Shown: one piece after another, positions 1,087-30,826 of the stretch
Layout of the letters: the number at the start of each line of letters is the position of its first letter
Numbering within the stretch: position 1 is the stretch's first letter
Origin: Trichlorobacter lovleyi SZ
GTDB taxonomy: Bacteria; Desulfobacterota; Desulfuromonadia; Geobacterales; Pseudopelobacteraceae
Length of the DNA: 32,000 bases
NCBI RefSeq assembly: GCF_000020385.1
Contig: NC_010814.1
Location: 3,600,001 to 3,632,000 of the forward strand
Reading direction: 5' to 3'
Translations under genes and position numbers: made by a program
The notes under the pieces: generated by a model
The model's database searches: none
What the model saw: the letters and a program-made list of their open reading frames with translations, nothing else
What the model was told of the DNA's origin: nothing

Positions 1087-1097
1087 TATGGGGCAAA

Positions 1098-14314: not shown

Positions 14315-16105
14315 TCAGTGTCTGGACCGTTCAGACCAGACCTGCGTAAAGGCCGCCTCAAGATCCCGGGTAAACGCAACCGTATCGCAGATCGGCGATG
14401 CTGCCATCTGCTGCCGCAGACGGCTTCGCAGGGTAGACAGACCGGCCAGATTACTGCCCCAGGCAAGCGCTGTAGCAACATAGGCATCCTCACTGGCAAC
14501 GATCCAGTCTGCCACCCCCGCCTGCGTGAGATGACTCTCGGCATGGCGCACAAAAGGCGGCCGCTTGCCGCGTAACACCAGGGTCGGCACCCCCATCCAG
14601 AGTGCCTCAAGAACGGTCACCCCCCCTTGATAGGGAACCGGATCCAATGCGATATCAACCTGATGATAGGCTGCCAACAGCTCTCTACGGGGGGCATACC
14701 CCTCCAGCAGGATCCGGTCTGACGACACCCCTTCAGCTGCCAGTTTTTCCCAATAAGCGCTGCGGACCAAGGGGTCATCAAATCCCTTTGACTTCAGGAA
14801 CAGCCGCGATCCGGGCAGGGCACGCAGCACCGCCCCCCAGAGCGCAAGGGTGCTGCTGTTTAGCTTTTGCACTGTATTGAATGACCCAAAGGTGATGCAT
14901 CCGGTTGTCAGTGCAGGCAAGCTCCCTACCAGCGGCGCATCCGCAGGGGGTCGGAAGCTGACATAGCCGTGGGGCAGGTAGAGCGGGCGTTCCGTATAGT
15001 ACGGGCGATCTTCCGGCGGTAATGCCACCTGATCGGCAAGGATATGATCCATCGCCTCCAGGCCGGTACTCCCCGGATAGCCTCCCCAGGTGATCTGCAG
15101 CGGGGCCAGTCTCCGGGCAAAGAGGTCAAGGTAATTCCCCCCGGTATGGCCCGCCATGTCTACCGCAATATCGAGCTGCCAGGCGCGGATCTGGCGTACG
15201 ATCTCCAGGCGGTCAGTGCCATGCAGCACAACCCAATGTTCTGCTGAGCGTTTCAGGGCCGCAGTCAGCTCATCCCGCTCTGTATAGGGTGAAAAAACCA
15301 CGATCTCAAAGCGATTCCGGTCATGGGCCGGAATCACCCCTTCCAGAAAATAACCCACGGGATGGGCGTACAGATCGGCAGAGAGATAGCCGATCCTGAT
15401 CCGCTTACGTGTACCAGGGCTCAAGGGTGGCGCCGGTGCTGTCTCAATCCGGCATGTTTCCTCAAACCGGCGATGCATGCCGGCGATGAATTCACCGCTT
15501 AGACTATGGAGCTGTTTTGCCACCCTGCTGATCCGCACGGCCAGTCCCGGAACTGCTGCACACATGTCCAGTTCCCGGGCAACAACCTGCGGCGCAATGG
15601 TACGAACCATCAGCAAGGTATAGAGCAAATTACTGACAGTGGCCCGGGCGTGCCGGTCAAGCTCCACTGAGAGGCCATACCAGAGCAGGGCCGCTTCTGC
15701 CTCACCGGCCATGACCAGGGCATTCCCCAGACCGGACAACAATCCGGGATTGACAGGGTCGGCAGCAACCGACCGGCGCAGGGCCGTCACGGCAGCAACA
15801 TACCGTTTGCCCTGCTCCAGCATCCTGGCATAGCCGAGCGCCCCGTTTGCATAGCCCGGCATCTCCTCAAACAGACCACGGTACGCCGTCTCAGCCTCAG
15901 CATAACGGCCAAGCTTTTCAAACAGCCAGGCACAGTTGTTTTGCAGGGTATATTCGTGCGGACAGGCAGCAAGCAGCTCCTGAAAAATGTCCAGAGCCTG
16001 CTGATAGTTGCCGCTGGAGACGAGGGAGGTCGCCTGGGCAAAACGTTTCTCAAGCAGGGCTGCTGCCCCTGCAAACAGGGGAGAGCAAGAATCGCTTGCA
16101 TTCAC
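14315..16105 (-). CDS. TPR-repeat protein with C-terminal GT41 (OGT / SPINDLY-type) glycosyltransferase domain; candidate flagellin glycosyltransferase (FlmG-like architecture)
   Basis: The track ORF starts at GTG 16123. The in-frame GTG at 16105 is preceded by AAGGAG plus 8 nt and makes a GTGA overlap with the upstream stop, so I prefer it. The N-terminal ~230 aa are TPR-like. The C-terminal half carries IRIGYLSADLYAHPVGYF, DMAGHTGGN, APLQITWGGYPGSTGL, ITFGSFN and VDIALDPVPYQGGVTVLEALWMGVPTL, typical of COG3914/GT41. Confidence 0.8.
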   Translation of the reverse strand: MNASDSCSPLFAGAAALLEKRFAQATSLVSSGNYQQALDIFQELLAACPHEYTLQNNCAWLFEKLGRYAEAETAYRGLFEEMPGYANGALGYARMLEQGKRYVAAVTALRRSVAADPVNPGLLSGLGNALVMAGEAEAALLWYGLSVELDRHARATVSNLLYTLLMVRTIAPQVVARELDMCAAVPGLAVRISRVAKQLHSLSGEFIAGMHRRFEETCRIETAPAPPLSPGTRKRIRIGYLSADLYAHPVGYFLEGVIPAHDRNRFEIVVFSPYTERDELTAALKRSAEHWVVLHGTDRLEIVRQIRAWQLDIAVDMAGHTGGNYLDLFARRLAPLQITWGGYPGSTGLEAMDHILADQVALPPEDRPYYTERPLYLPHGYVSFRPPADAPLVGSLPALTTGCITFGSFNTVQKLNSSTLALWGAVLRALPGSRLFLKSKGFDDPLVRSAYWEKLAAEGVSSDRILLEGYAPRRELLAAYHQVDIALDPVPYQGGVTVLEALWMGVPTLVLRGKRPPFVRHAESHLTQAGVADWIVASEDAYVATALAWGSNLAGLSTLRSRLRQQMAASPICDTVAFTRDLEAAFTQVWSERSRH

Positions 16106-18105
16106 CGGCTGTTCTCCTTGCACCAGCGTTGCCAGATCTGACGGTAGACTCCCTCCAGATGGCAGGTGAAGGTACTATTATCAGCAAGGGGCGAAGCCAG
16201 CAGCCGGTCCCGCAAAGAGCTCCTTAGCGCTGCCAAACGGACGGTGTCAGCGGCAAGGGCAACGGCAAGAGAACAATACTCTTCCGGCGAATTACCAATC
16301 AGTTCAGGCAGTCCAACGCTGTGCAGCAGACTGACGCCGACCCGCGAAACATGGCTGTCGCCAGCCCTGGTCACCACCGGCACCCCCATACAGAGCGCTT
16401 CACAGGTAGTGGTGGTACCATGATAGGGAAAGGTATCCAATGCAATATCAATGGTATGGTACCCCTCAAGGTTTTCCACCACGGACCGGGCATGCCCCAA
16501 TACAGAAATCCGCTCCGGAGCAACCTGATGCCGCAGGAAGAGCGGGGCAATATCACGCACAAAACGATCGTGGGAAAGCCCCCTGGCCCTGAAAACAAGG
16601 TGGGAATCAGGAACTTTGGCAAGTATCCGTGCCCAAAGGTCAAGGATGTCAGGCGTCACTTTCTTGAAGTTACTGAAAGAGCCAAAGGTGACATACCCGT
16701 TTGTCTGACAAGGCAATGATCCCACAGCCGGAAAATCAGCTCCGGGACGATAGCAGAGAAAGCTGTCCGGCAGACGGATCAGCTCTTCGGTGTGAAACGG
16801 ATCGGTCACGCCCGGAGGGTCGGCCCAGGCATCACTGATCCGGTAATCCATCTCCATCAGACCGGTACTGTTTGGATAGCCGATCCAGCTGACCTGCAGC
16901 GGTGCCGCCCGCCCGGCAAACAACGGCAGGCGGTTCAGGGCGGTATGCCCTGCCAGATCCACCAGTACGTCAATCTGATCCTGCAGAAGCAGTTCCTGCA
17001 CCGACGCATCATCCATTGCCGAACAATCACGCCAGATCACGTGGTGCTGTTCTTTCAGCTGGCGTGTCACAACATCGGGCTTTTTAACATCCGAGTAGCA
17101 ATAGACTGTTACCTGAGCTGGATCGTGAGCAGCCAGAACCGGCTGGAGAAAGAATACGACGGCATGAATCTTCAGGTCGGGAGAGAGGTAGGCAACCCTG
17201 ATCGGGCGGTCAGGATCAGGATCGTTGGCAAAATGTTTCATTGCCACAGGCTCAAAATACTGTTGGCCCCAGTTTTTATGCTCTGCAGCTATGGCTGCTG
17301 CCGACCAGTTGGCTGAATAATGCAACATAAACAGACGTGTGCTGGCCAAGGCACGCTTCTGGAAGAGATGGTTTGAACTCGCAATGGCCAGGTCAAAGCA
17401 GGCAATCGCATCATCAACCATCCAGAGCTCACTCAGGCAATTGGCAGTGCTGCCAAGCAGTTCGGCCCGTTCATCCGGCCTTACAAGCTCCAGCACCCGC
17501 TGATAGCAGGCCAGAGACTCCTCGAACCGGAACATCTTCCCGTACACTATTGCCAGATTCCCGATCAAGGCAACATTGTCTGAATCAAGGTGAAGACCAT
17601 GGCGGCAGGAGTGGAGCGCTCCATCATTGTCATCGCTTGCCAGACAGACGGCTGTCAGGTTGATCCACGAATTGAGATGCTGCGGATCAATCGCAAGCGC
17701 CTGCTCAAACGCATGCCTGGCCGGCTCCATGCGCTCGAGCCGCTGCAACAGGACCCCTCGGTTGTAATAAAGGTTTACGGTTGTTTCACCAAGTGCCTCA
17801 GCTTCGTCAAAAGCGGCCAACGCCTCTTCAAAGCACCCCAGTTCCTGCAGAGCCAGTGCCAGGTTTATCCGTAAAAAGCCAATCTCAAGAGCCAGATTAC
17901 AGGCCTGCCGGTACAATATGGCTGCCTCATCCCAGGAGCCTGTGGCATACATGATCGTTGCCAGCATGAAGGTAGCCTCAAGGTTACCACTGTCCAGCTG
18001 CAGGATTCTGCGGCAGATCAGCGCTGCTTCTTCATGGAATCCCTGACGGTTCAGGGTCTCTGCTTGATCAAGCGAACACAGTATATCCGGTTGCATCTGC
18101 TCCAC
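16102..18105 (-). CDS. TPR-repeat protein with C-terminal GT41 (OGT / SPINDLY-type) glycosyltransferase domain; paralog of 14315..16105
   Basis: 667-aa ORF starting at GTG 18105, with GGAGG (18116-18120, minus strand) about 10 nt upstream. The N-terminal ~300 aa are TPRs. The C-terminal half has IRVAYLSPDLKIHAVVFF, DLAGHTALN, APLQVSWIGYPNSTGL, VTFGSFS and IDIALDTFPYHGTTTTCEALCMGVPVV, collinear with the downstream paralog. Confidence 0.8.
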   Translation of the reverse strand: MEQMQPDILCSLDQAETLNRQGFHEEAALICRRILQLDSGNLEATFMLATIMYATGSWDEAAILYRQACNLALEIGFLRINLALALQELGCFEEALAAFDEAEALGETTVNLYYNRGVLLQRLERMEPARHAFEQALAIDPQHLNSWINLTAVCLASDDNDGALHSCRHGLHLDSDNVALIGNLAIVYGKMFRFEESLACYQRVLELVRPDERAELLGSTANCLSELWMVDDAIACFDLAIASSNHLFQKRALASTRLFMLHYSANWSAAAIAAEHKNWGQQYFEPVAMKHFANDPDPDRPIRVAYLSPDLKIHAVVFFLQPVLAAHDPAQVTVYCYSDVKKPDVVTRQLKEQHHVIWRDCSAMDDASVQELLLQDQIDVLVDLAGHTALNRLPLFAGRAAPLQVSWIGYPNSTGLMEMDYRISDAWADPPGVTDPFHTEELIRLPDSFLCYRPGADFPAVGSLPCQTNGYVTFGSFSNFKKVTPDILDLWARILAKVPDSHLVFRARGLSHDRFVRDIAPLFLRHQVAPERISVLGHARSVVENLEGYHTIDIALDTFPYHGTTTTCEALCMGVPVVTRAGDSHVSRVGVSLLHSVGLPELIGNSPEEYCSLAVALAADTVRLAALRSSLRDRLLASPLADNSTFTCHLEGVYRQIWQRWCKENSR

Positions 18106-18313: not shown

Positions 18314-19141
18314 ATGGCTATCGGCGATATTTCGCTCACGTCCGGTATGCGGAGCAACCTGCTTTCACTGCAAGGGACCGCAAAATCAATCGACCAGACC
18401 CAAAACCGGCTTTCAAGCGGCAAACGGGTAAACACACCACTGGACAATCCGACCAACTACTTTGCAGCCCAAGGGCACGTAGAACGCGCCTCTGACCTGG
18501 CTGTACGCAAAGATGGCATGGCAGAGGCGATCCAGATGGTCAAGGCAGCCGACACCGGCATCAAGGGAATCACCTCACTGATCGAATCAGCCAAAGGGGT
18601 GGCCACGGCAGCGCTTGCCACCAGTGACACAAATGAACGTTCAACCTATTCTGCCACTTTTAACACCCTGCTCAATCAGGTCTCCATGATGGCCAGCGAC
18701 TCCGGCTATCGCGGTATCAACCTGCTGACCAACGGTTCACAAACCGTTGAATTCGGACAGCGCACCAATGCGTCCACCCTGCAGATCACCGGTTTCAACG
18801 CCACTGCTGCCGGTCTGACCATGCAATCGGCCGTTGCCACGGCCTGGTCTGCATCAGGTAATTCAGCCATCAACTCATCCTCTTCCGAGCTTGAGTCCGC
18901 CCTGAGCTTTCTGCGTACCAAATCTTCAGCCCTGTCGGCTAACCTGAGTGCGGTAACCACCCGTCAGGACTTCACCAACTCCATGATTAACAATCTGCAG
19001 ACCGGTGCTGATAACCTGACCCTGGCCGATACCAACGAAGAAGGCGCCAACATGCTGATGCTACAGACCCGTCAGAACCTTGGCATTACCTCTTTGAGCA
19101 TGGCCTCGCAAGCGGCCCAGGCGGTTCTGAAGCTATTTTAA
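18314..19141 (+). CDS. fliC: Flagellin (short, 275 aa, Caulobacter/Geobacter-type lacking a large variable domain)
   Basis: RBS AAGGAGG 6 nt upstream of the ATG. Conserved flagellin N-terminus (SLTSGMRSNLLSLQ, RLSSGKRVN.PLDNPTNYF) and C-terminus (TRQDFTNSMINNLQTGADNLTLADTNEEGANMLMLQTRQNLGITSLSMASQAAQAVLKLF). Confidence 0.95.
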   Translation: MAIGDISLTSGMRSNLLSLQGTAKSIDQTQNRLSSGKRVNTPLDNPTNYFAAQGHVERASDLAVRKDGMAEAIQMVKAADTGIKGITSLIESAKGVATAALATSDTNERSTYSATFNTLLNQVSMMASDSGYRGINLLTNGSQTVEFGQRTNASTLQITGFNATAAGLTMQSAVATAWSASGNSAINSSSSELESALSFLRTKSSALSANLSAVTTRQDFTNSMINNLQTGADNLTLADTNEEGANMLMLQTRQNLGITSLSMASQAAQAVLKLF

Positions 19142-19276: not shown

Positions 19277-20104
19277 ATGGCTATCAACGACATCTCCCTC
19301 ACCTCCGGCATGAGGAGCAACCTGCTTTCACTGCAAGGCACCTCAAAACTGATTGACCAGACCCAGACCCGCCTCTCTTCAGGCAAAAAGGTTAACACCC
19401 CGCTGGATAACCCGACCAACTATTTTGCAGCACAAGGACATATGGAGCGGGCTGCTGACCTTTCCGTACGTAAAGACGGTATGGCTGAAGCAATTTCCAT
19501 GGTTAAGGCCGCCGATACCGGTATCAAGGCCATTACCTCCCTGATTGAAGCCGCAAAAGGTGTCGCCGGTGCTGCATTGGCAACCAGTGACGCTGCTGAG
19601 CGTTCCACCTACACCACCACCTTCAACACCCTGCTCAGCCAGGTATCGCAGCTTGCTTCCGACTCCGGCTACCGGGGCACCAACCTGCTGACTGCCGGTT
19701 CACAAACCGTTGAATTCGGTCAGCGGACCAACGCTGCTACCCTGCAGATCAGCGGCTTCAGCGCTACTGCAACCGGCCTGACCATCCAGTCTGCTGTTGC
19801 AACTGCCTGGTCAGCATCAGGTAACTCAGCCATCAACTCATCCTCTTCCGAGCTTGAGTCCGCACTGAGCTTCCTGCGTGCCAAGTCTTCATCGCTGTCT
19901 GCAAACCTGAGCGTTGTTACCACCCGTCAGGACTTCACCAACTCCATGATCAACACCCTGCAGACCGGTGCTGACAACCTGACCCTGGCCGATACCAACG
20001 AAGAAGGCGCTAACATGCTGATGCTGCAGACCCGTCAGAACCTGGGCATCACCTCCTTGAGCATGGCTTCCCAGTCAGCTCAGGCAGTTCTGAGACTGTT
20101 CTAA
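19277..20104 (+). CDS. fliC: Flagellin (275 aa), tandem paralog of 18314..19141
   Basis: RBS AAAGGAG upstream. About 32 substitutions out of 275 aa versus the upstream copy by my hand alignment. Same conserved flagellin termini. Confidence 0.95.
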   Translation: MAINDISLTSGMRSNLLSLQGTSKLIDQTQTRLSSGKKVNTPLDNPTNYFAAQGHMERAADLSVRKDGMAEAISMVKAADTGIKAITSLIEAAKGVAGAALATSDAAERSTYTTTFNTLLSQVSQLASDSGYRGTNLLTAGSQTVEFGQRTNAATLQISGFSATATGLTIQSAVATAWSASGNSAINSSSSELESALSFLRAKSSSLSANLSVVTTRQDFTNSMINTLQTGADNLTLADTNEEGANMLMLQTRQNLGITSLSMASQSAQAVLRLF

Positions 20105-20209: not shown

Positions 20210-20854
20210 ATGGAAGTTCAGACAAGCAACGGAGTCAATACTGCGTATCTTTCAGTGCAGCAGACGACGAGCCAGAAGCAGGCCCAGCAATCACAGCAGA
20301 CACAAACAGCTGAGACACAACAGAATACGCCGGACAGCATGGCGCTTAATCCTGCGGCCCAACCGGCAGATCAGGTCAAGCTTTCTTCTTCGGTTACGGT
20401 GAAAAACCTTGACACGGTCAAAGCGATTGAACAGATGCACACCCGCATGAACCAACTGGTAAAAGGAACACGCGAGACGAATGAGGCCTTAAACAAGGCT
20501 GCCGAGCAGGTTAACTTCATGCAGGGCAACCTTACCAGCATCATCAAGAATTTCCCGCCTTTTCCCATTGACAGCAAAGAGCGCCAAGAGCTCCTGATGA
20601 GCTACACCTCAATCCGTCAGGAAATGATGAAAATGACTATACCGCAACCGCCACCGCCAATGTATGAGCAGGTCAAACACGAGTGGGACAAGACGGTGGG
20701 GCAGAATGGCCAGATGCTCTCCAGCGCCGTACCGGCGCTTGAGACAACCAGTAGTGACACCCAGGTAAACGAGGCGGCCGTCCAGCTTGAAAATGCCAGC
20801 GCCGGTCTTGCAAACCTGAGTTCGAGTGTCACAAAGGCGCTGATCGGCGGTTAA
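20210..20854 (+). CDS. Hypothetical protein, flagellar-locus associated (Q/T/S-rich N-terminus; no family recognised)
   Basis: 214-aa ORF with RBS AAGGGAG 7 nt upstream, located immediately after the flagellin terminator. Its stop lies 4 nt before the flbT ATG. I found no FlaF, FlaG or FlgM signature motifs. Confidence 0.7.
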   Translation: MEVQTSNGVNTAYLSVQQTTSQKQAQQSQQTQTAETQQNTPDSMALNPAAQPADQVKLSSSVTVKNLDTVKAIEQMHTRMNQLVKGTRETNEALNKAAEQVNFMQGNLTSIIKNFPPFPIDSKERQELLMSYTSIRQEMMKMTIPQPPPPMYEQVKHEWDKTVGQNGQMLSSAVPALETTSSDTQVNEAAVQLENASAGLANLSSSVTKALIGG

Positions 20855-20858
20855 CCCC

Positions 20859-21278
20859 ATGTCACTAAAAATACGTTTAAAACCACTGGAAAAGATGCTG
20901 ATCGGTAACGCAGTGATTACCAACGGGGACAGAACCACCGAGTTTTTCATTGAAAACAAGGTGCCGATCCTGCGCGAAAAAGAGCTTATGAAAGAAGACG
21001 CCGCCTCGACGCCGGGGCGGCGAATCTACTTTCTGGTTCAGCTGATGTACGTCGATGAAGAGAATTTTGAAACCTATCATAATCAGTTTTGGGAGATTGT
21101 GCGTCAGGTGATTCTGGCAGCTCCGAGCACGACACCGATTATCACCGATATTTGCCATGAGATCATGAACCGCCGCTACTATCAGGCCCTGAAGGAGGCA
21201 CGCCACCTGGTGGATTACGAGCAGGAACTGGTTGATTCCGCAACAGTTCCTGAAGCTGAGGCATCCGCAATGGCCTGA
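20859..21278 (+). CDS. flbT: Flagellar biosynthesis repressor FlbT (post-transcriptional regulator of flagellin synthesis)
   Basis: 139 aa. MSLKIRLKPLEKMLIGNAVITNGDRTTEFFIENKVPILREKELM....TPGRRIYFLVQLMY...YYQALKEARHLVDYEQEL is collinear with the FlbT family as I recall it from Caulobacter (MPLKLSLKPGEKFVLNGAVVQNGDR...LREKDIM...TP.R.IYF...MMY). Confidence 0.85.
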   Translation: MSLKIRLKPLEKMLIGNAVITNGDRTTEFFIENKVPILREKELMKEDAASTPGRRIYFLVQLMYVDEENFETYHNQFWEIVRQVILAAPSTTPIITDICHEIMNRRYYQALKEARHLVDYEQELVDSATVPEAEASAMA

Positions 21279-24200
21279 GCAACGGCTGCAAGCTCCGGGG
21301 AGTTCCCCTGCTGTTGCAACAGGCTGCACCGCACACCACAGAACAGCTGCCTGCAATCCGTTCCGGCTGCCCGTAACTGGCGTAGCAGCTGCCGCCCTTC
21401 TGCCGGATTACCGATACGATAGAGCGCCAGAACGGCAAGTCCCAGCAATACCGGATTGCCGGGACAGCACTGCTGAGCCTGCATCGCGTACCGATACGCC
21501 TCATCTCCCGTATACAGGCAGGTTTCACAGATCGTCTTGTTAACCAGTGCATCGGTAAAGGCTGGATCAATGGCCAGCGCATGCGTGCTGGCATCCACGG
21601 CCTCCCGCAGCTTTCCCTGACGCAATAGCACATACCCCAGATTGAACCATCCTTTTGCTAAATCCGGCTGTTGACTGAGCAGCCTGATCCAAAGCTGTTC
21701 GGCAGTTACGTACTGCTCCAGTTCTGCAGCCTGTACCGCCAGCTCATAGAGGGCCTTGGGATCATCCGGCTGCTCTGCAAGTTTTTTTAATCCCAATGCC
21801 AGGTACTGTTCCTGTTTTGTCTTGTTTTTCTGTTGTTGCAGGGTTCCATAGTGGTGTACCGGCACCGGATGCTGTACCACGGAAAGCCCGGCCTGTTGCG
21901 CGGTTTCCTCAACCATTTCATGGATGGCTCCCCTGAACCTGATATCATGCTGATTCGGAAAAAGCCGGACCTTGTCGCTGGGCGTCCAGCCCGCCCCGGC
22001 TTCGTTTTCCGGATACTCGCCACGACACGCTACAAATCCCTCCAGCCCTGTGCTGAGCGTATAGTTACGGGTCGTCAGACTATATGACTGCCTTGGCGAT
22101 GCTGCAGCCAAAACATCTCTGAAGAGCTGATAATCCCGTACCGAGATCTGTTCATCGGCATCCATCACCAAAATCCAGTCAGCAGTGGCCAGCTCGATTG
22201 AGCGGTTCCTGGCCGCTGAAAAATCATGCTGCCACGCCTGATCCACAACCAGGGCGCCGAACAGCCCGGCAATCTGCCTGGTTCGGTCGGATGAACCGGT
22301 ATCAACAACTATCATTTCATGCACCAGCGGCTTGCACGACGCCAGACAGCGGGCAAGCTGCCGTTCTTCATCCTTCACAATCATGCACAGCGCAACTGAC
22401 CTGCCCGGTTGGGCAGCTACGTGATATGGTCCACTGAGGTGTCGCTGTTTCATGCCGGCCTGCAAGACGCGGTCATCAGGTCCGAATTGATCCAGAAAGG
22501 CCTCTGCCCAGACAAGGCTAGTTTCGCTGCTGTTCTCAAGATCAGCCAGTTCAATCCGCAACCGGGCCAGTCCACGGCTGTGAGGGTACAACCGAAACGC
22601 CTCATCGGCATACTGCGCCAGGCCTGCTCCACCCTGCCGGCGGCCCAGTTCCAGCAGGGCGTCTTGCAGCTCCAGCCGCCACGGCTCCAGTATAAACCCT
22701 TTCAACAGCAGTGCGTCCGCGTACTCCTCGCATCCCTCAGCCCGGGCCAGCTCCACCTGCTGCAATACCGGACAGGTATGATTCGCGCTCGATATAGCCC
22801 GTTCCAGCAGCTCCGCCAGCAACGGCACACCGGGGTGTTCAATGACGGCCTGACGCAGCAGGACGAGGGCCTCATCAATCCGCTCATCCAGCAGCAGCTG
22901 TTCACCCTGCTCAAGCAGACGGCAGACCGCAATCCGTCTGCCCAGATCCGGATCAGTGACCGGCCTGCTCCATTTTTCATGGAAAAGCGCAGCATTACGA
23001 ACCAGAGCAGGTCTGTAGTCAATCCGGTTGCCCTTGAATGTCATGCTGCCATGATGGTGGATATAGACATCTGAGGCCACAAGGTTCTGACGCCCCGCCA
23101 CTGCGGCCCGTATACAGAAGTCATCATCTTCGTAGTTTCCGCTGCCGAACTGCTCATCCAGCAGGCCGATCTCTTCCATGAGTGTCCGATGAAACAGCAT
23201 GCAGAAACCGACAATCCGGCGGGACCGGACCCGGCGGAAGCGGTTACGGATTCTGAATTCAGCGGCAAAGCCATCCAGCCCGCCGGCAGCGGTATAGTCC
23301 GGCAAGGGCAGCACCTGAATACCGCTGGCGCTGTTGCTCAACGGCCCCGCGATCCCTGTACGGGGATGCGAGATATGGCATTCGAGCAGGCCGGAAAGCC
23401 ACTCAGACGTAACAACCACATCATTATTTAGCAGCACGAGGTACTCACCGCGGGCCAGTTGCAGTCCCTGGTTGCAGCCGGCGGCATAGCCGAGGTTCCG
23501 GTCGTTCAGGATCAGATGACAATCGGCATCAGCAGCGCTCAGCTCCTGCAGCCGTGTCCTGGTACCATCGCTGGAGCCATTATCAACGAAAATCAACTCA
23601 TGGGGTTCTGGGGTGTGCTGCCTGATCGAGGCAAGACATTGTTCGGTACAGGCCCACTGATTAAAGGTCAGGATAATGATGGAAACCAGCGGCCTGCCGT
23701 TGCCGGCAACCGGCATTTCCCAGGCGCGGGGCAGGTTGAGCACCCTGTCAAACCTGACAGTCTGGTTGTAGTCCGGTCTGGAAGGGGTAAACCAGTCAAT
23801 CCCCCACAGTTCCATTGGCGCTGGAACCCGGCCCGCGCCATAGTGGGCTGCCAGAATCCGGTACAAGGCATCGCTGCTTTCCTGTACCAGCCGGCCGGTA
23901 GTCGTAACCGGGGCGCTCTTGAAGCTGTGCTGCCCCTCGTGCCAGACAAAGGTGTCAGCTGCTATCATCAGGCGGTAGCCATGCAGCCGCAGCCGCCAGG
24001 ACAGCTCAAGGTCATCGTTGCCCAGAAAAAGCCGTTCATCCAGCCCGCCCAGCCGATGGAGCAGTTCCAGGCGGATCATCAGACAAAAACCGATCAGCAG
24101 CCTGGTCTTTTCCGACCGGCCCTGATTCATCCGGCACAGCAGTTCCGCTGCCTGCTCGGGGTCAATCCCGTGCGGCAGCTCCCCCTGCCAGTGACAGGCC

Positions 24201-25522
24201 ACTGATTGCCGTCCTGCAGCAAAGTTTGAGACCGGCCCCACCGCGGCAACGGAACGGTCTTCAAAAGGGCGTGCAAGCCGGTCGAGCCAGCCGGCTGTTA
24301 CCACGGTATCAGGGTTCAGCAGCACCACAAAGGGAGTAGCAGCCAGCCTGATCCCCTGGTTGGATGCCACCGAAAACCCACGATTCGACGTATTTTTGAT
24401 CAGTTGCAGCGGCAGTCCGGATTGCAGCTTCTGCACCAGAGCGCAGGTAGTATCCTGCGAAAGGTTATCGACGACAATCACCTGATCACCGGGCCGCATG
24501 GTTCGCGCCAGACTTTCCAGGCAGGCCACAATGGTCTTTGAGGAATTGTAGGTTACCACAACGATGGTTGCCGCCTGATCGCCGGGCTGTGGCGCATCAA
24601 TCCAGCCCAGAATCTGTGCCCCCCATTTTTCAAAAAACAGCGTACGGTTCCGTTGCCAGGCTTGCTCAAAACGTGCCGCCTGTCCGGCTGTCCTCTGCTG
24701 CAAGCCGGTCACAAGCGGATCATCAGCGGCAAGGGTGACCCCCTTCTGTTGCAAAACCCCCAGATAGCGTTCCAGGACCAAGGCTTCGGCCTTCAAGGTA
24801 CCGCCCTGGTGATGGATCAGCGGACTCTCCGGGCAGACCCATGCAAGCAACCCCTGTGACCGGAATGCCAGACAGAGATCATCATCCTCCCAACCGTTTT
24901 CATAGCGTTCATCAAAGGGGCCAAAGCTGAAAAACTGTTCACGGCGCAGCAGTATGCATGCCCCGGTAACTGTCAGAAACGCCCCCCCGCCCTGCACATC
25001 TGACAGGTCGGCCGGTTGCCCATAGCGATAATGTTCGCTGCAGGGCAGCCCATCGGCAGCCACGCTCCAACGCTTGCCACAGTGTTGAATGGTGCCATTG
25101 GGAAACAGGAGACGCGGTGCCACGATACCAATCTCCGGTCGCTGCTGCAGCACCCTGACAAGGGGCTCACACCATCCTGCTGCCTGGGCCTCAATGTCAT
25201 TGTTCATAAACAGCAGCAACGTTCCGCGTGCCTCGCGGGCTCCGCAGTTACAGGCCCGGGCAAAACTGTGCGGTGCCTGGTTGCTGATCAGCCTGATCCG
25301 TAGTTCAGCAGGATAAAGCTGCGACAAGGCCACGACCGTCTCATCACTGGAACCGTCGTCAACAACAATAATCTCAAAAGGGAGAGCAGGAGGAAAGCAG
25401 AGGAGAGACGAAATACAGGCACGGGTCAGATGCCACTGGTTGTGAACCGGAATGATGATGGAAAGCGCTGGGCCAGTCAAGGAGGCATGAGCCGCCTTGA
25501 CTGGTGTTTCTTCAGCAGACAT
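21215..25522 (-). CDS. Giant multidomain glycosyltransferase: four GT2 (GT-A) domains, a helical linker and C-terminal TPR repeats
   Basis: 1435-aa ORF. GT2-1 spans aa ~20-240 (LSIIIPVHNQ, IIVVDDGSSDET, FMNNDIE, ENGWEDDDLC). GT2-2 spans aa ~318-535 (IVVVTYNS, VIVVDNLSQDTT, LLNPDTVV, LGNDDLELSWR). GT2-3 spans aa ~612-830 (VSIIILTFNQ, LIFVDNGSSDGT, LLNNDVVV, GNYEDDDFC). GT2-4 spans aa ~1042-1230 (VALCMIVKDEE, MIVVDTGSSDRT, LVMDADEQI). TPRs span aa ~1240-1400. The ATG lies 5 nt after the stop of the upstream TPR gene. Confidence 0.85.
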   Translation of the reverse strand: MSAEETPVKAAHASLTGPALSIIIPVHNQWHLTRACISSLLCFPPALPFEIIVVDDGSSDETVVALSQLYPAELRIRLISNQAPHSFARACNCGAREARGTLLLFMNNDIEAQAAGWCEPLVRVLQQRPEIGIVAPRLLFPNGTIQHCGKRWSVAADGLPCSEHYRYGQPADLSDVQGGGAFLTVTGACILLRREQFFSFGPFDERYENGWEDDDLCLAFRSQGLLAWVCPESPLIHHQGGTLKAEALVLERYLGVLQQKGVTLAADDPLVTGLQQRTAGQAARFEQAWQRNRTLFFEKWGAQILGWIDAPQPGDQAATIVVVTYNSSKTIVACLESLARTMRPGDQVIVVDNLSQDTTCALVQKLQSGLPLQLIKNTSNRGFSVASNQGIRLAATPFVVLLNPDTVVTAGWLDRLARPFEDRSVAAVGPVSNFAAGRQSVACHWQGELPHGIDPEQAAELLCRMNQGRSEKTRLLIGFCLMIRLELLHRLGGLDERLFLGNDDLELSWRLRLHGYRLMIAADTFVWHEGQHSFKSAPVTTTGRLVQESSDALYRILAAHYGAGRVPAPMELWGIDWFTPSRPDYNQTVRFDRVLNLPRAWEMPVAGNGRPLVSIIILTFNQWACTEQCLASIRQHTPEPHELIFVDNGSSDGTRTRLQELSAADADCHLILNDRNLGYAAGCNQGLQLARGEYLVLLNNDVVVTSEWLSGLLECHISHPRTGIAGPLSNSASGIQVLPLPDYTAAGGLDGFAAEFRIRNRFRRVRSRRIVGFCMLFHRTLMEEIGLLDEQFGSGNYEDDDFCIRAAVAGRQNLVASDVYIHHHGSMTFKGNRIDYRPALVRNAALFHEKWSRPVTDPDLGRRIAVCRLLEQGEQLLLDERIDEALVLLRQAVIEHPGVPLLAELLERAISSANHTCPVLQQVELARAEGCEEYADALLLKGFILEPWRLELQDALLELGRRQGGAGLAQYADEAFRLYPHSRGLARLRIELADLENSSETSLVWAEAFLDQFGPDDRVLQAGMKQRHLSGPYHVAAQPGRSVALCMIVKDEERQLARCLASCKPLVHEMIVVDTGSSDRTRQIAGLFGALVVDQAWQHDFSAARNRSIELATADWILVMDADEQISVRDYQLFRDVLAAASPRQSYSLTTRNYTLSTGLEGFVACRGEYPENEAGAGWTPSDKVRLFPNQHDIRFRGAIHEMVEETAQQAGLSVVQHPVPVHHYGTLQQQKNKTKQEQYLALGLKKLAEQPDDPKALYELAVQAAELEQYVTAEQLWIRLLSQQPDLAKGWFNLGYVLLRQGKLREAVDASTHALAIDPAFTDALVNKTICETCLYTGDEAYRYAMQAQQCCPGNPVLLGLAVLALYRIGNPAEGRQLLRQLRAAGTDCRQLFCGVRCSLLQQQGNSPELAAVAQAIADASASGTVAESTSSCS

Positions 25523-25527
25523 GGCGA

Positions 25528-26454
25528 TCAGACGCCGGACAGAAAAGTCCGGGCTTCAGTATTCCACGGTTGCAAGGCAAGCACCTTGTTAATAAATATG
25601 CGAGACTGTTCAGGCAGTTTCGCTTCCTTAGAGAAGATTGCCAGCGCTGTCAGCACCTCAACATCATTGGGATATTCCTTTATCAGCTGGGTATAGATTT
25701 CAACCGCCTCATCAATCATCCCACAGGCTGTATAGTACAAGTCTGCCAGGTTCTTGCGATACATAAGATTTGCCGGTTCACACTTCACCGCCTGTTCATG
25801 GTGAAAACGGGCTTGGTCATACTCCCCCCGCCGGCTGTAGACAATGCCCAGGTTATTGTGGGCCAGTGCGCTGGCAGGATTTTGGGCCAACAACTGTTGC
25901 AGGGGTGCCAGCTCCTCATCCTGCTGTGGCAACAATGCAGGCTGACGGTATTCTGCCGCCGAAACCGGCCCGTCCAGACGGGCCAGGATCTCCCTCACCT
26001 CAGCATTGCCCGGCTCCAGCTGGTTGGCTTTACGGTAAAAGGCCCGTGCTTCTTCAGGCTGGCCGACCGTCTCACTGATATTACCCAAAGCGGTCAGGAT
26101 CTCAAAGTCATTCGGCCAGGCGTTCAGCAGTTCCGTCAGCATCTCAATCGCATCGTCGGTCCAGCCCAGGACGACAAAGTAGAATTCTGCCAGATTCTTG
26201 ATAACGGTCGGATTATTCGGTTGCAGCCGATTGGCCTTCTCGTAATGGGCCAGCGCAAGCAGGTCATTACCGGACTGGTGATAGAGCACCCCCAGATCGT
26301 TATGGGCAAGCGGTACATCCGGAAACATCTTCAGGAAAGTCTTGATCTCCGCGATCGCCTCCGCGGACTCTCGTGACAAACAGGTCCTCAGACGCTGGTA
26401 GGCGTTCTGAGCTTCATATTGATTGTACGGAATAACGGAGGTGGTCATAAACAA
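25528..26454 (-). CDS. Stand-alone TPR-repeat protein (internally duplicated ~110-aa module)
   Basis: 308-aa ORF with RBS AAGGAG 9 nt upstream (minus strand). It holds two collinear halves: AHNDLGVLYHQSGN...PNNPTVIKNLAEFY...WPNDFEILTALG and AHNNLGIVYSRRGE...PANLMYRKNLADLY...YPNDVEVLTALA. Confidence 0.85.
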   Translation of the reverse strand: MFMTTSVIPYNQYEAQNAYQRLRTCLSRESAEAIAEIKTFLKMFPDVPLAHNDLGVLYHQSGNDLLALAHYEKANRLQPNNPTVIKNLAEFYFVVLGWTDDAIEMLTELLNAWPNDFEILTALGNISETVGQPEEARAFYRKANQLEPGNAEVREILARLDGPVSAAEYRQPALLPQQDEELAPLQQLLAQNPASALAHNNLGIVYSRRGEYDQARFHHEQAVKCEPANLMYRKNLADLYYTACGMIDEAVEIYTQLIKEYPNDVEVLTALAIFSKEAKLPEQSRIFINKVLALQPWNTEARTFLSGV

Positions 26455-26521: not shown

Positions 26522-28531
26522 TTATTGCGCTGTCGTGCTGTCTCTACGAGCCATATAGCGGGCAATCCGCTCCAGTCGCTGTTGATAGCGTTGTTGGTAA
26601 CTCTCAAATATCTCAGCAATCTCCGGATCAGCAATGTGGCGCTTATTGGAGATTCCTTCCGGAGTATACCAATAAAGGCCTGTTATTATTGGTATATGCA
26701 ACAACTGAAACCGCTCGGCAATCCGTAGCCACATCTCCTGATCACCGATGGCAAGATACTTTTCATTAAAGTAGCCAACGTAGTCATGCACCTGTCGTCG
26801 CCACATCGGATGGGGACCGACACAACAATTTTCGATATGATGCTCAAAGGAATACGGTGGCCAAGCAAACTGGCCACAGCGATCATGCCGGGCAAAGGTC
26901 TGATGGGGGTACAGCGTCAGCCAGGTGTCACCATAGACCAGCATCACTTCAGGATTTTCATCCAGCGCCTTTTTCAATAACTCACAGGCGGTGGGCGCCA
27001 AACGGTCATTCGTGCTGAACGAAAGCAGGTAACTCCCTTGCGCGGCCTTGATGGCCACGTTCCAGGCGGCATAAATACCAATTCTCTCGGAAGTTCGTAT
27101 ATATTTAATGTTTCGGTGTTTCCCCTGAAATTCTTCAATAATTATCCGCTCATTTTCCGGCGAGGCAGCATCCACGACAACCACTTCTATCTGCTCGAAG
27201 ATCGTCTGGGCAACCAGGTCTTCCAGACACTCCCGCATGAACGCCTCTGAGGCATAGGTGGTAACAATCACCGATACGACAGGCTTAACCTCCTGCTGCA
27301 TAGCAAAACTCTTCTGCATTGATGATATTGCCGGGTTATGCAACTCCGAAACAAGCGAAAGTAGCGGAGTAATGGTCTTGTCAAGATTCAGATGATTTGC
27401 AAAAAATTGTTCGGCATTCAAACCGCTTTGTTCAAGATCAGATCGACTCAGGTTAGCTAACACCCGCCCTGTATCGGTCACGCTGCCAACAACCCAGCCC
27501 AACCCAAACTGACGGACATGTCTGCTCATTTCTCCGATCTCGTTTACCACTATTGGCAGACCATATTGGAGGTAGGTTGCAATCTTGCCAGATGCAAGCC
27601 CTATATGTTCCAAGTTCTTACCATCAATTGGATGGTCTTTATGGTAATAGGGTGTATAAAAAGCGCAGCCAGCATCGCATGCCTGAATAAGTTCGCCGAG
27701 CTCCGAAAACTCCAGGGGGCCAAATGGCGAGACTAACAATCGGTTATGCGGAAAACTTGCAACTACATCAAATACATCAGACGGATAACAGCCATAACGG
27801 TGGTGAATCAGCAGCGACCAGTCATCCGGCCAGGTGTGAAGACTGCGTAACAACTCGTGAATACCGGTCCATATAGCTGTGATTTCACCCATATACAACA
27901 GTATCTTTTGTTTTTGTGGCAACGAAAAATGGTGATGGATACGATAATTTCTACTGATGTGCTTAACACCACGACCGGCAACTGGGATTTTTACGATTCG
28001 TTCAAGCGGGATGCCATTTTCCAAAGACAAATCAGCAGCACGCAGGTCATCCTGGGCAATTGCAAACAGCAGATTTCGTGAGGCCTCAATCTCCATCTGT
28101 TTCTGCCAGGAGGAAACCACATCAGCAAAATAGAGTTCATATGATATCAATGCATGTGGAACACCCTGCTGTGCGGCAACAAGCGCAGCTTCAACTATTC
28201 CCAGATCAACGCCAATAATCAGCGTATATAGCGGCAGCTCTTTTGTAATATAATTTTGCAGTGTCCCAGAATTTTCAATGCATCCGGGGGGAAGCAAAAA
28301 GAAGAAGTCAGCAGGATAACCGGTACGGCCTTGGCGAGGAATACTGATAAAAGTAGCCAAACTGTGGGGTGTACTCGCTGGTATTCCAGGTTCACCAGGG
28401 CTATAGATATCAACCAGATAGCCGTTATTGCACAGAATATCCACCATACCCCAAAGATTAGGATTGTTAGAAATGTTACCTTCGGGATGAATGAGCATGA
28501 TACGTGCTCTGTCAGCACTGGCTACTCTCAT
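26522..28531 (-). CDS. Bifunctional glycosyltransferase: N-terminal GT-B-like domain + C-terminal GT2 domain
   Basis: The track ORF starts at 28555. ATG 28531 forms an ATGA overlap with the upstream stop and is preferred. The C-terminal ~250 aa are GT2 ([42 protein letters not shown]). The N-terminal ~400 aa are GT-B-like ([24 protein letters not shown]). Confidence 0.8.
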
Positions 28532-29277
28532 GAACAGACCACCAAGGCATTCCAAGTATCAAAACCAAGTGGTCTAGCGGTAAGCCACTCTTCAGCCCGC
28601 ACCACCTCAAAACCAGCCTCCTGCAACATCAAGGAAAGTTCCGGCAGATACAGATAGCGCATTCGATGTGTTTCCCTCACCTCCTGGACTTCTTTGGTCA
28701 GCAGATTCCTTGCAAAAAGATGATAGTTTACATCAACCAGATTCTGATTGGGATGCATGACGGGGCTGGCTATCCGGGTTATGCTGATTGTATCATCGAC
28801 AAGCTCTTTTACCCGCACAGCAGGCCTGTCAGTCAGAACTGCGGGGCCATACCAACAGTCAAAGATAAAAATCCCACCAGACTTAAGGTGTTGTCGAGCC
28901 GTGCCAAATGCAGCCATCAAATCAGCGTTTTCAGCTTGGTAGCTCATGACGTGAAACAAGGAGATAATCACGTCAAAGGTCATGTCCAGACGAACCGTGC
29001 GCACATCATCCTGCACATAACGAACAGCAGCATATCCCTCTGCCGCTTGACGTGCAGCAGCCAGCATATCTTCTGAAAGATCAACACCGGTCATGGCATA
29101 GCCCTTCTCTGACAGGAGCCGGTCATGCCTGCCTGAACCACAACCCAGGTTCAAAATCGAATGTGCTGCTGGACAATGTTGCTGTAGTATATCGTGAATA
29201 TATGCGACTTCAGCAGCATAGTCTTTATCGCGATACAGCAAATCATAGTATCGGGCATACTCACCAAAAAGACTCAT
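28528..29277 (-). CDS. Class I SAM-dependent methyltransferase, TylM1/DesVI-like (candidate amino-sugar N-methyltransferase)
   Basis: 249 aa. [21 protein letters not shown]...[11 protein letters not shown]...[13 protein letters not shown]...DDVR...[13 protein letters not shown]...[16 protein letters not shown] is collinear with my recollection of TylM1 (YDLVHQGKGKDY..EA...LLDVACGTGMH...GLELSADML..AR...GDMR...FSAVTCMFSSIGH...DGVVVVEPWWFP). ATGA overlap with the upstream aminotransferase gene. Confidence 0.7.
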
Positions 29278-30380
29278 TTCAGACTCTCCCGAACAGTAGT
29301 AGTTACAGAAACTATCTGTTCATCGGTTATGGTCAAACCGCTGGGAAGATACACCCCCTGCCGAGCCAGCCGGTCTGCCACCGGAAACTGTTCACCCTGG
29401 AAAAGACCCATTTTCTGGAAAACCGGCTGCTGATGCATGCCAAGAAAAAAAGGACGCGTTTCAATATGCGCTTCGCGCAAGCGGTCTGCCAACATTATGG
29501 CCGTCACCCCCGTGCTCTCACCGACGACAACGCCCAATACCCAATAGACACTCTTGGCCCACGCCTCTTCGACCTGCATGCGTATCCCTGCAACATCCCG
29601 TAACTGCTCGGCATAAGCGGCAGCAATGGCCCTTTTACGGGCCACGATTCCATCCATCCGATCAATCTGTCCGACCCCCAGTGCCGCCTGGATATTCGTC
29701 ATTCTATAATTATAACCCAGTTCATCATGCAAAAAACGCTGCTGCTTCTGAAAACAGAGATTCCGCAGACTCCGTGCCCGCTCAGCATGTTCCGGTGTAC
29801 GCACCAGCACCATCCCGCCCTCGCCGGTAGTCACCAGCTTGTTGGCATAAAAACTGAAAGTACTGATATCCGCCAGGCCACCGCAGCGGCGTCCCTTGTA
29901 TTCCGCCCCGTGCACTTCAGCGGCATCTTCAATGACCGTTAGATGGTGCCTGCGGGCAACGTCCGTAATCAAATCCATATCAGCAGGATGACCGTAGATA
30001 TGTACTACAAGGATAGCCTTTGTTCTTGGGCCTATCTTTGCCTCTATCTGACCTGCATCCATCTGCCAGTTGTGCGGCTCACTGTCCACAAGCACAGGAA
30101 CACCACCTGCGCGTACTATCGACTGGGCAGGAGAGATAATGGTGAAGGTTGGCATAATAACTTCATCGCCCGGCTGAAGATTGAGCAGTCCAACCGCCAG
30201 ATCCAGCGCAACAGAACCATTACTGACGGCGATACCAAACGGCATGCCACAATAAGCAGCCCAGCGCTGTTCAAACAGATCCAGATACATGCCCGCCGAT
30301 GATATCCAGCCTGACTTCAGTGCATCATTTACCAGGGCAATGTCACGTTCCGTTATACACGGTTCAGAAACTGGAAGCAT
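29274..30380 (-). CDS. DegT/DnrJ/EryC1/StrS-family PLP-dependent sugar-nucleotide aminotransferase (perosamine-synthase-like by motif)
   Basis: The ATG at 30380 overlaps the upstream TGA by 1 nt (TGATG); the track used the TTG at 30383. Motifs: SEPCITERD, SGWISS, VSNGSVAL, GDEVIMPTFT, VHIYGHP, the active-site Lys context FSFYANKLVTTGEGGM, YNYRMTNIQAALGVGQ and ETRPFF. Confidence 0.9.
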   Translation of the reverse strand: MLPVSEPCITERDIALVNDALKSGWISSAGMYLDLFEQRWAAYCGMPFGIAVSNGSVALDLAVGLLNLQPGDEVIMPTFTIISPAQSIVRAGGVPVLVDSEPHNWQMDAGQIEAKIGPRTKAILVVHIYGHPADMDLITDVARRHHLTVIEDAAEVHGAEYKGRRCGGLADISTFSFYANKLVTTGEGGMVLVRTPEHAERARSLRNLCFQKQQRFLHDELGYNYRMTNIQAALGVGQIDRMDGIVARKRAIAAAYAEQLRDVAGIRMQVEEAWAKSVYWVLGVVVGESTGVTAIMLADRLREAHIETRPFFLGMHQQPVFQKMGLFQGEQFPVADRLARQGVYLPSGLTITDEQIVSVTTTVRESLK

Positions 30381-30826
30381 CAAAAGCGCTCCTTCTCTAC
30401 CAAGCCGGTATAGGGCCCCTGCTTCAGTTCAAAAAAAATCGTATCCTCAAGACATTTCAGGCGATGACCGCCAGAGACCAGCAGGATGATATCACCCTCT
30501 TCAAGGTTCCAGATCCCAATCAGGCACTTATCCAATCCATACAGTTCCACCTCCGCCCTGCCCTTACGAATAAGCAATGTTTCCGGAGTACCCACCAGAT
30601 GGCGTTGCAGCGGTAGATGGGTATGCCGGGCAACCACGCCATCCTTTGGGTAGACCACAAAGCCGGCTTGCTGATAATAGCTGTCCGGGGAGATGAAAGT
30701 CGTGGTTTCCGGCATATAATCCTTACGGATAATGGTAGCAATATGCTGGTCGTGCCAGACAACATGCTCCACAAGATGGGATGGAGTGTATTCTTCTGAA
30801 ATGATTTGATCAGCTTCTGTTGGCAT
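30380..30826 (-). CDS. Cupin-fold protein, candidate NDP-sugar ketoisomerase/epimerase (specific activity not assignable)
   Basis: 148-aa ORF with GAGGAA upstream of the ATG. It has an HxH cupin motif (GVVARHTH) and a second motif EGDIILLVSGGH. It sits between methyltransferase and aminotransferase genes with overlapping stops and starts. Confidence 0.55.
   Translation of the reverse strand: MPTEADQIISEEYTPSHLVEHVVWHDQHIATIIRKDYMPETTTFISPDSYYQQAGFVVYPKDGVVARHTHLPLQRHLVGTPETLLIRKGRAEVELYGLDKCLIGIWNLEEGDIILLVSGGHRLKCLEDTIFFELKQGPYTGLVEKERF

Follow-up and report, generated by a model that had tools for sequence, protein, structure and literature searches.

The window analysed here, a stretch of 32,000 nucleotides from Trichlorobacter lovleyi SZ (contig NC_010814.1), bears on its minus strand at 21215-25522 an open reading frame (ORF) that reads from ATG without internal stop codon and encodes a protein of 1435 amino acids (aa) with the module order D1-D2-D3-helical spacer-D4-TPR, where D1 to D4 are glycosyltransferase family 2 (GT2) domains and TPR is a domain of tetratricopeptide repeats. 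This target ORF closes an operon on the minus strand and converges with the gene for the flagellin-synthesis regulator FlbT and, behind it, two flagellin genes, and its product is considered here as a candidate flagellin glycosyltransferase. An identical 1435-aa product is encoded in three independent assemblies (two from NCBI and one SRA-derived), and the six-module order, scored with custom module hidden Markov models (HMMs) built from an alignment of full-length relatives, is kept in 19 full-length relatives of 1380-1453 aa sharing 53-99% identity, the orthologues of this length being 53-71% identical. Hence, an artefact of frameshift, gene fusion or assembly, by which the ORF would in fact be several genes as an earlier note on this DNA had considered, was ruled out. 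Databases have listed the protein for a long time, albeit with a generic label only. Its 90%-identity cluster includes WP_012471404.1 / ACD97080.1 / UniProt B3EBP1 along with other T. lovleyi entries, and in B3EBP1 the protein of T. lovleyi SZ, a species formerly assigned to Geobacter, is called 'glycosyl transferase family 2'. A homology search with the target protein retrieved 575 proteins at E <= 1e-10. No transmembrane-like segment was seen along the whole chain, and a membrane-bound synthase was dismissed on this ground.

Over the whole protein, Pfam family PF00535 gives four stretches (E 3.9e-95). The chain was also cut into six segments which were scanned alone against Pfam, and all four GT2 segments surpass the PF00535 gathering score of 23.3 bits, bearing out the proposal in the earlier note that a single ORF holds four such domains. 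D1 (residues 18-260, 24743-25471; 88.9 bits, E 4.6e-25) is a WbbL-type GT2 domain of the GT-A class, D2 (residues 315-560, 23843-24580; 82.7 bits, E 3.9e-23) is of Glyco_tranf_2_3 or rhamnosyltransferase-like type and also scores 80.1 bits with PF13641, D3 (residues 608-850, 22973-23701; 97.4 bits, E 1.2e-27) is a further GT2 domain, and D4 (residues 1040-1235, 21818-22405; 62.0 bits, E 8.6e-17), which additionally matches PF13704, is discussed below. Nucleotide-binding motifs are found at residues 51-62 of D1 (IIVVDDGSSDET, core VVDDGSSD with D55 and D60), 348-359 of D2 (VIVVDNLSQDTT, core VVDNLSQD with D352 and D357), 643-654 of D3 (LIFVDNGSSDGT, core FVDNGSSD with D647 and D652) and 1070-1081 of D4 (MIVVDTGSSDRT, core VVDTGSSD with D1074 and D1079), the VVD..S.D pattern thus recurring at 53-60, 350-357, 645-652 and 1072-1079. 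The DxD-type motifs are NND at 107-109 in D1 (with D109), NPD at 403-405 in D2 (D405) and NND at 699-701 in D3 (D701), that is, Asn replaces the first Asp while the last Asp is invariant, and in D4 the motif is canonical (DAD at 1121-1123, within DADE at 1121-1124). Both motif types lie where the earlier note had placed them. Its assignment of an ED(D)D(L/F)C loop to the first three domains stands for D1 (EDDDLC, 212-217) and D3 (EDDDFC, 798-803) and is only approximate for D2, where the weaker acidic loop NDDLE (502-506) is without the Glu and Cys of EDDD(L/F)C.

Pairwise identity among D1, D2 and D3 is only 25-31%, indicating old, diverged paralogues and not recent duplications. To judge from their sequences, the three are WbbL/GlfT-like GT2 modules; their sub-threshold NCBIfam matches include rhamnosyltransferase, EpsD, GlfT1, MftF and HpsN models, the first four of which all score below cut-off with D2. 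An AlphaFold2 (AF2) model of residues 1-860 (pLDDT 85.8, pTM 0.56) consists of three well-folded GT-A units with helical connectors, in a mutual arrangement that is not fixed.

The C-terminal block of residues 860-1435 was modelled with AF2 from a 40-sequence alignment, resulting in a pLDDT of 92.9 and a pTM of 0.85. It opens with a helical spacer of about 170 aa (residues 860-1030, 22433-22945, minus strand), modelled at pLDDT above 90 as ten short antiparallel helices of about 11-18 residues each, equivalent to five TPR-like hairpins; the helical linker predicted in the earlier note between the third and fourth domains is thereby recovered. The segment 880-1035 scanned alone does not match any Pfam family, and the equivalent region in relatives scores weakly as TPR with the module HMMs. 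A coiled-coil molecular ruler, as in O-antigen terminator proteins, was considered for the spacer and rejected in view of the ten short hairpin helices. The following D4 forms a GT-A domain in the model and also bears HHYG at 1223-1226. From its PF13704-like sequence, it differs in kind from the GT2 modules D1-D3. About 190 residues follow D4, most of them belonging to the C-terminal TPR domain (residues 1245-1422, 21257-21790, minus strand), which comprises 13 modelled helices and matches the Pfam families TPR_17, TPR_2, TPR_1 and TPR_19 over about 1257-1391, as foreseen for this end of the protein. The last approximately 11 residues are modelled with pLDDT below 50, and the last approximately 35 are poorly conserved.

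Among PDB sequences, D4 is closest to 22ao_A (E 2e-26), a chain of 204 aa that was deposited as GmaR; the identity is 33% along 186 aa and rises in the nucleotide-binding half. In Listeria monocytogenes, GmaR is both a flagellin beta-O-GlcNAc transferase and the MogR antirepressor. The GT domain of GmaR O-GlcNAcylates flagellin and its TPR has been proposed to recognise flagellin (PMC9638930). The two proteins share the VDTGS.D and DADE motifs as well as a GT domain directly followed by TPRs, whereas GmaR possesses a single GT domain which is then succeeded by a linker of about 250 aa and an antirepressor domain binding MogR (PMC9638930), and the target protein has three extra GT2 modules, a second TPR-like block before D4 and only the short stretch behind it. 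In a PDB sequence search at E <= 1e-5, GmaR residues 183-630 did not show any similarity in the target. Hence, the GmaR-like end module postulated in the earlier note holds for the GT and TPR parts and not for the antirepressor half; lacking the latter and the linker, the target protein is, on sequence comparison, not a GmaR orthologue, and it is not expected to act as a thermosensor or antirepressor. Next among the PDB sequence matches of D4 are the glycocin S-glycosyltransferases SunS and ThuS (E 4e-12), which also rank first when the spacer-D4-TPR model is compared with PDB by Foldseek (E about 1e-12, TM-score on target 0.54-0.70), followed by TPR superhelices including the protein glycosyltransferases SPINDLY (SPY) and OGT. 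SunS and ThuS (PDB 7msn, 7msp and 7msk) likewise combine a GT-A domain with a subsequent helical substrate-binding domain. However, their identity to the target is only 16-19%, the SunS-family model TIGR04195 of NCBIfam gives 92.2 bits, under its curated cut-off of 350, and the glycocin enzymes use one GT domain to modify small precursors of bacteriocins, a context that does not exist at the target locus.

Alignments of 20 full-length orthologues, and broader ones, show conservation of 90% or more, up to invariance, for the Asp/Ser/Asp residues of nucleotide binding and the final Asp of (N/D)xD in all four domains, for the acidic loops of D1-D3 and for DADE and HHYG of D4. Mean identity to the query amounts to 68-72% in the catalytic domains versus 46-58% in connectors, spacer and TPR. 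Taken together, this pattern argues that all four GT2 domains are functional, their activity being predicted from the alignments. Against this, at least one domain might be a pseudo-enzyme scaffold that binds glycan or nucleotide, so that fewer than four sugars would be added, and NxD instead of DxD in D1-D3 as well as the D2 loop without Glu and Cys could be taken in its favour. A similar hint comes from four loci in metagenome-assembled genomes (MAGs) of Gemmatimonadota/Latescibacterota (L021, L024, L027 and L041), where ORFs of 1361-1428 aa encode three tandem D4-type GT2 modules and a weak TPR tail, and only the first module has kept the D.D motif. Yet, across 20-40 homologues, N-x-D, VVD..S.D and the acidic loop vary little or not at all in any domain of the target, which would be unexpected for decaying sites and makes a partly dead enzyme quite improbable.

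The window can be read as an island for flagellin glycosylation. Upstream of the target, minus-strand genes that overlap or abut run from position 31985 and encode a methyltransferase (30810-31985), a WbuC-like cupin (30380-30826), a LegC/PseC-like aminotransferase (29274-30383), a second methyltransferase (28528-29277), a 677-aa protein with a GT2 domain (26522-28555) and a 308-aa all-TPR protein (25528-26454), the stop codon of the latter being situated 5 nt upstream of the target ATG, and the target closes this glycan-biosynthesis run. By analogy, the 308-aa protein may be a candidate flagellin-binding adaptor, in a role comparable to that of GlfM for Maf-2. On the plus strand, two flagellins of 275 aa each (18314-19141 with 24% Ser+Thr, matching PF00669 and PF00700, and 19277-20104 with 26% Ser+Thr) are 88% identical to each other and the presumed acceptors. 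They are followed by a 214-aa Gln/Ser/Thr-rich protein without Pfam or NCBIfam match (20210-20854) and by FlbT (20859-21278; PF07378, 154.6 bits), the gene of which is convergent with the target, the two 3' ends overlapping by 64 nt (21215-21278). An overlap with FlbT is also present in relatives (67 nt in the metagenomic locus L001 and 17 nt in G. argillaceus) and absent from Geobacter sp. AOG2. The target tail in the overlap is poorly conserved. Antisense effects or transcriptional interference on flbT are conceivable. Divergent from the flagellins, two minus-strand genes (14315-16123 and 16102-18105) encode TPR proteins with a GT41 domain of OGT/FlmG-like type (PF13844 plus TPR families), the second with a weak match to the HMW1C-like protein N-glucosyltransferase model. 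Besides, three consecutive plus-strand ORFs at 1047-10167 of 1078, 673 and 1288 aa each contain a Glyco_trans_1_2 module, fused to TPR and methyltransferase in the first, to GT2 in the second and to methyltransferase and B12-binding radical SAM in the third, and accompanied in the 1078- and 673-aa ORFs by DUF3880, CgeB-like; these appear as further multi-module glycan-tailoring enzymes of the same island.

The link to flagellin suggested in the earlier note is strongly supported by conserved synteny in relatives, namely a 63%-identical metagenomic relative (L001/L002), G. argillaceus (L003), Geobacter sp. AOG2 (L004), a Geobacteraceae MAG (L005) and T. lovleyi (L006-L008). The kept order is a TPR gene followed by the multi-GT2-TPR gene, convergent with FlbT, usually a gene of unknown function, and flagellin. 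This order is present in L001/L002, in G. argillaceus and Geobacter sp. AOG2, both with a three-module protein, in the Geobacteraceae MAG with a four-module protein of 1590 aa, and in the other T. lovleyi assemblies. A TPR gene for about 250-350 aa precedes the target homologue in L001, L003, L004 (two copies) and L006, the position of the 214-aa protein is filled by proteins of 216, 202 and 183 aa in L001, L003 and L005, respectively, and FlaF is separately encoded in L004 and L005. Further upstream, the gene preceding the TPR gene encodes a 707-aa GT4+GT2 protein in L006 and, in L007, L008 and the window, a protein of about 660-677 aa that combines a GT2 domain with an N-terminus of Gtf3_C-like type, hence the island varies between T. 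lovleyi strains. In three relatives, a second mega-glycosyltransferase carrying several GT2 and/or GT4, GT9 and methyltransferase modules lies just upstream of the TPR gene or the target homologue (1881 aa at 2426-8071 in L004, 2084 aa at 610-6864 in L003 and 1735 aa at 4851-10058 in L005). Candidates for D1 or D2 encoded as separate genes close to the three-module variants of L003 and L004 were rejected, as the neighbouring GT2 domains score 30-58 bits versus more than 250 for true modules; the lone exception are D1-like domains of 183 and 154 bits within the 1881-aa neighbour in L004. This fusion/fission search did not give any usable Rosetta-stone evidence.

The TPR-GT41 pair bears on the question which enzyme attaches the first sugar. 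FlmG-like neighbours might initiate, and all four GT2 domains including D4 would then extend or branch the glycan, with the TPRs merely keeping the enzyme on flagellin. Such a pair divergent from the flagellins is found in L001 and G. argillaceus as well as in the window, and in Caulobacter, which has FlbT/FlaF and flagellins of about 273 aa, FlmG of like architecture is sufficient for flagellin glycosylation, its TPR domain binding the flagellins (PMC7591256). However, Geobacter sp. AOG2 has its multi-GT2-TPR gene beside FlbT and flagellin without any GT41 gene within 10 kb, and the nearest characterised relatives of D4, GmaR and SunS/ThuS, all glycosylate polypeptides directly. A function in elongation only is thus regarded as unlikely, and initiation by D4 is preferred. 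The Caulobacter system is instructive all the same, as in FlmG and Maf-1 a TPR domain gives a cytoplasmic GT its flagellin recognition and the FlmG setting with FlbT/FlaF and short flagellins of about 275 aa resembles that of the target. In contrast, FlmG has an N-terminal TPR and a C-terminal GT-B domain and transfers a single pseudaminic acid, whereas the target domains are all GT-A and the target protein does not match PF13844 (GT41); the FlmG-like proteins of the window are its neighbours at 14315-18105.

Species-representative genomes were also scanned with a D4 alignment, giving 513 relatives of which the best 80 loci were taken, with Geobacter genomes covered separately. Loci in which D4 is at least 45% identical come from Desulfobacterales, Syntrophales, Pelobacter and others; among them, at least nine genomes of Thermodesulfobacteriota beyond those named above have flagellin 0.9-6.3 kb away, together with FlbT. 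Where flagellin is missing at this identity level, the locus lies on a short contig, belongs to Gemmatimonadota or, once (L016), has a single domain. Since distant D4 relatives mostly have no flagellin nearby, the flagellin association belongs to the clade of the target and not to the D4 fold or module as such. Such distant homologues, usually away from flagellin, might be taken to mean that the proximity is incidental and that the target acts on a lipid-linked, O-antigen or exopolysaccharide glycan or on another protein, the more so as some homologues are labelled 'O-antigen biosynthesis protein' by JGI and the best sub-threshold NCBIfam matches are exopolysaccharide/O-polysaccharide (EPS/OPS) enzymes. 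Convergence with FlbT and flagellin is, however, held from 99% down to about 36% identity across Thermodesulfobacteriota families, rendering a non-flagellin substrate unlikely, the protein has no membrane segment, and D4 is closest to polypeptide glycosyltransferases and flanked by TPRs. A substrate other than flagellin is accordingly judged very improbable, and flagellin is retained as the presumed acceptor.

The spacer-D4-TPR region is widespread beyond this clade. When 1.84 billion representatives at 50% identity were searched with it, 1,582 clusters were obtained at E <= 1e-30; among the best 150 of these, the median protein measures 1,411 aa and 35 are longer than 2,000 aa. Counts of GT2 modules at distant D4 loci were unreliable in the initial scan due to split matches, and in a recount on these 150 representatives a match was therefore scored only if it covered the N-terminal portion of the module HMM. 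By this rule, one GT2 module is present in 19 of them, two in 45, three in 66, four in 13, five in four and six, the maximum, in three. Hence, at least four GT2 modules occur in 20 of the best 150 clusters, and the rarity implied in the earlier note is overstated, as uncharacterised proteins commonly show this architecture. A Pfam cross-check resulted in six PF00535 stretches each in P0199 and P0142 and five in P0153. These are giant proteins (3038, 2742 and 4061 aa, respectively) ending in the same D4-TPR module, with GT4 modules in P0153 and P0199 and long TPR arrays in P0142 and P0153. Among the 120 closest homologues, 119 have a D4 match, and in all 119 of these the GT2 module immediately preceding spacer-D4 is D3, which points to D3 as the module that probably adds a conserved second sugar. 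The N-terminal sets vary (D2-D3, D1-D3, D1-D2-D3, D1-D1-D3 or more), and some close homologues have methyltransferase or GT4 inserts, the former in P0037, P0075 and P0117. The target fits a multi-GT2 family of Thermodesulfobacteriota, defined in the present analysis by a D3-spacer-D4-TPR core and variable N-terminal GT2 modules as well as a gene position convergent with or beside FlbT and flagellin, and can be described as a probable TPR-guided flagellin glycosyltransferase fused to three extenders within a large, unstudied family, its four-GT2 architecture not being unique. In literature searches, no paper was found characterising any member of the multi-GT2-spacer-D4-TPR family, and neither was a characterised protein with four GT2 domains. 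The tandem D4-type proteins of Gemmatimonadota/Latescibacterota represent a different way of concatenating GT2 modules; 'five tandem D4 modules' first assigned to them were split HMM matches, the real number being three. At L027, a flagellin gene is located 2.2 kb from the three-module ORF.

Several GT domains per chain are also found in the chondroitin polymerase K4CP of E. coli K4, the heparosan synthase PmHS2 of P. multocida and human LARGE1, and these are the best Foldseek matches of the D1-D3 model (K4CP at E 9e-24, then PmHS2 and LARGE1), ahead of polypeptide GalNAc-transferases. All three are tandem-GT polymerases, LARGE1 works on a protein-linked glycan, and O-antigen assembly is an established case of multimodule polymerases (PMC11231755), so two or three of D1-D3 might act repeatedly and build a repeat polysaccharide on a primer installed by D4. 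Yet, TM-scores of only 0.2-0.3 attribute the match to tandem GT-A folds as such rather than to a common arrangement, and the known enzymes differ in having two catalytic domains, polymer products and no TPR or GmaR-like module. Furthermore, the TPR-like hairpins of the spacer are unlike the coiled-coil ruler of chain-length-regulating systems, and the variation between one and six modules across the family fits one sugar per module more simply. A polymerase is consequently thought improbable, and stepwise extension by D1-D3 is favoured.

A precedent for stepwise flagellin glycosylation by GT2 enzymes is known from C. difficile type B, in which GT1 puts N-acetylglucosamine (GlcNAc) on flagellin and a GT2+methyltransferase protein then adds two rhamnoses (PMC5207246). 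As proposed for the target, a GT2-family initiator is combined with further PF00535 extenders, and the methyltransferase fusion has its counterpart in P0037, P0075 and P0117. The two systems are likened here by description, and in C. difficile the steps are distributed over separate polypeptides (GT1, GT2 and GT3), whereas in the target the putative initiator and three extenders form one chain with TPR docking domains. From domain identities, catalytic motif conservation, folds and synteny we infer acceptor, sugars, order of addition and TPR docking as follows. One or both helical-repeat blocks flanking D4 would hold unfolded or unassembled flagellin, possibly assisted by the upstream TPR protein. 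By analogy with GmaR and SunS/ThuS, D4 would then attach the first sugar to Ser/Thr residues in the two flagellins, which are short and rich in these amino acids. D3 and subsequently the variable D2 and D1, as inverting GT2 modules of WbbL type, would lengthen the glycan, each with its own specificity, with D1 and D2 adding outer, lineage-specific sugars, and the flexible tethering of D1-D3 would allow a short oligosaccharide to be built without releasing flagellin, while the other genes of the operon would make and tailor the nucleotide sugars. The view taken in the earlier note, an assembly line whose four domains attach up to four sugars while flagellin is docked on the TPRs, is plausible in view of the four conserved catalytic centres and the precedent of TPR docking in FlmG (PMC7591256).

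That the target is an enzyme of flagellin-glycan biosynthesis is considered highly likely. To the whole picture of a soluble, cytoplasmic flagellin O-glycosylation enzyme in which D4 initiates, D1-D3 extend and the TPRs dock flagellin, we assign a probability of roughly 60%. Several observations weigh against it. The two TPR-GT41 genes adjoin the flagellins more closely than the target does and could encode alternative or additional flagellin glycosyltransferases, possibly the true initiators. The Asn-for-Asp swap in the DxD motif of D1-D3 is itself conserved in the alignments. With a pTM of 0.56, the D1-D3 model gives no structural support for a coordinated line of active sites. None of the target domains reaches an NCBIfam equivalog cut-off, so donor sugars cannot be named. 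At 35-40% identity, D4 relatives (Bacillota, Actinomycetota, Eremiobacterota and others) have for the most part a single D4-type match and no flagellin within 10 kb. Finally, the literature search found no paper on the target protein or on the flagellin glycan of T. lovleyi, and a search for flagellin glycosyltransferases of Geobacter or T. lovleyi gave nothing specific, although a genome paper of 2012 remarks on a probable glycosylation of the flagellins of Pelobacter/Geobacter.

As a rule, separate enzymes share the work of flagellin O-glycosylation, and the way in which a glycan of several sugars arises in the cytoplasm, without lipid carrier and on a substrate that remains competent for secretion, is poorly understood. 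An initiator, three extenders and two TPR blocks in one soluble chain would offer a compact and genetically tractable model of substrate-tethered stepwise glycosylation, for which the natural variants with one to six modules provide a ready-made comparative series, and the enzyme could serve as a chassis for attaching defined oligosaccharides to proteins by glyco-engineering. Some 1,600 representative clusters are presently named only 'glycosyltransferase', and at least the Thermodesulfobacteriota subset may be re-annotated as probable flagellin glycosylation enzymes. A more speculative idea, to which we give little credence, is that the family represents a collinear, template-free glycan assembly line with one sugar per module, the position of the module mirroring the position in the glycan (D4 for the first sugar, D3 for the second and the variable N-terminal modules for the outer ones). 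If true, this logic would much resemble the module order in nonribosomal peptide synthetases (NRPS) and polyketide synthases (PKS), and gain, loss and swap of modules (one to six GT2 plus methyltransferase and GT4 inserts) would write the diversity of flagellin glycans in Geobacter and its relatives.

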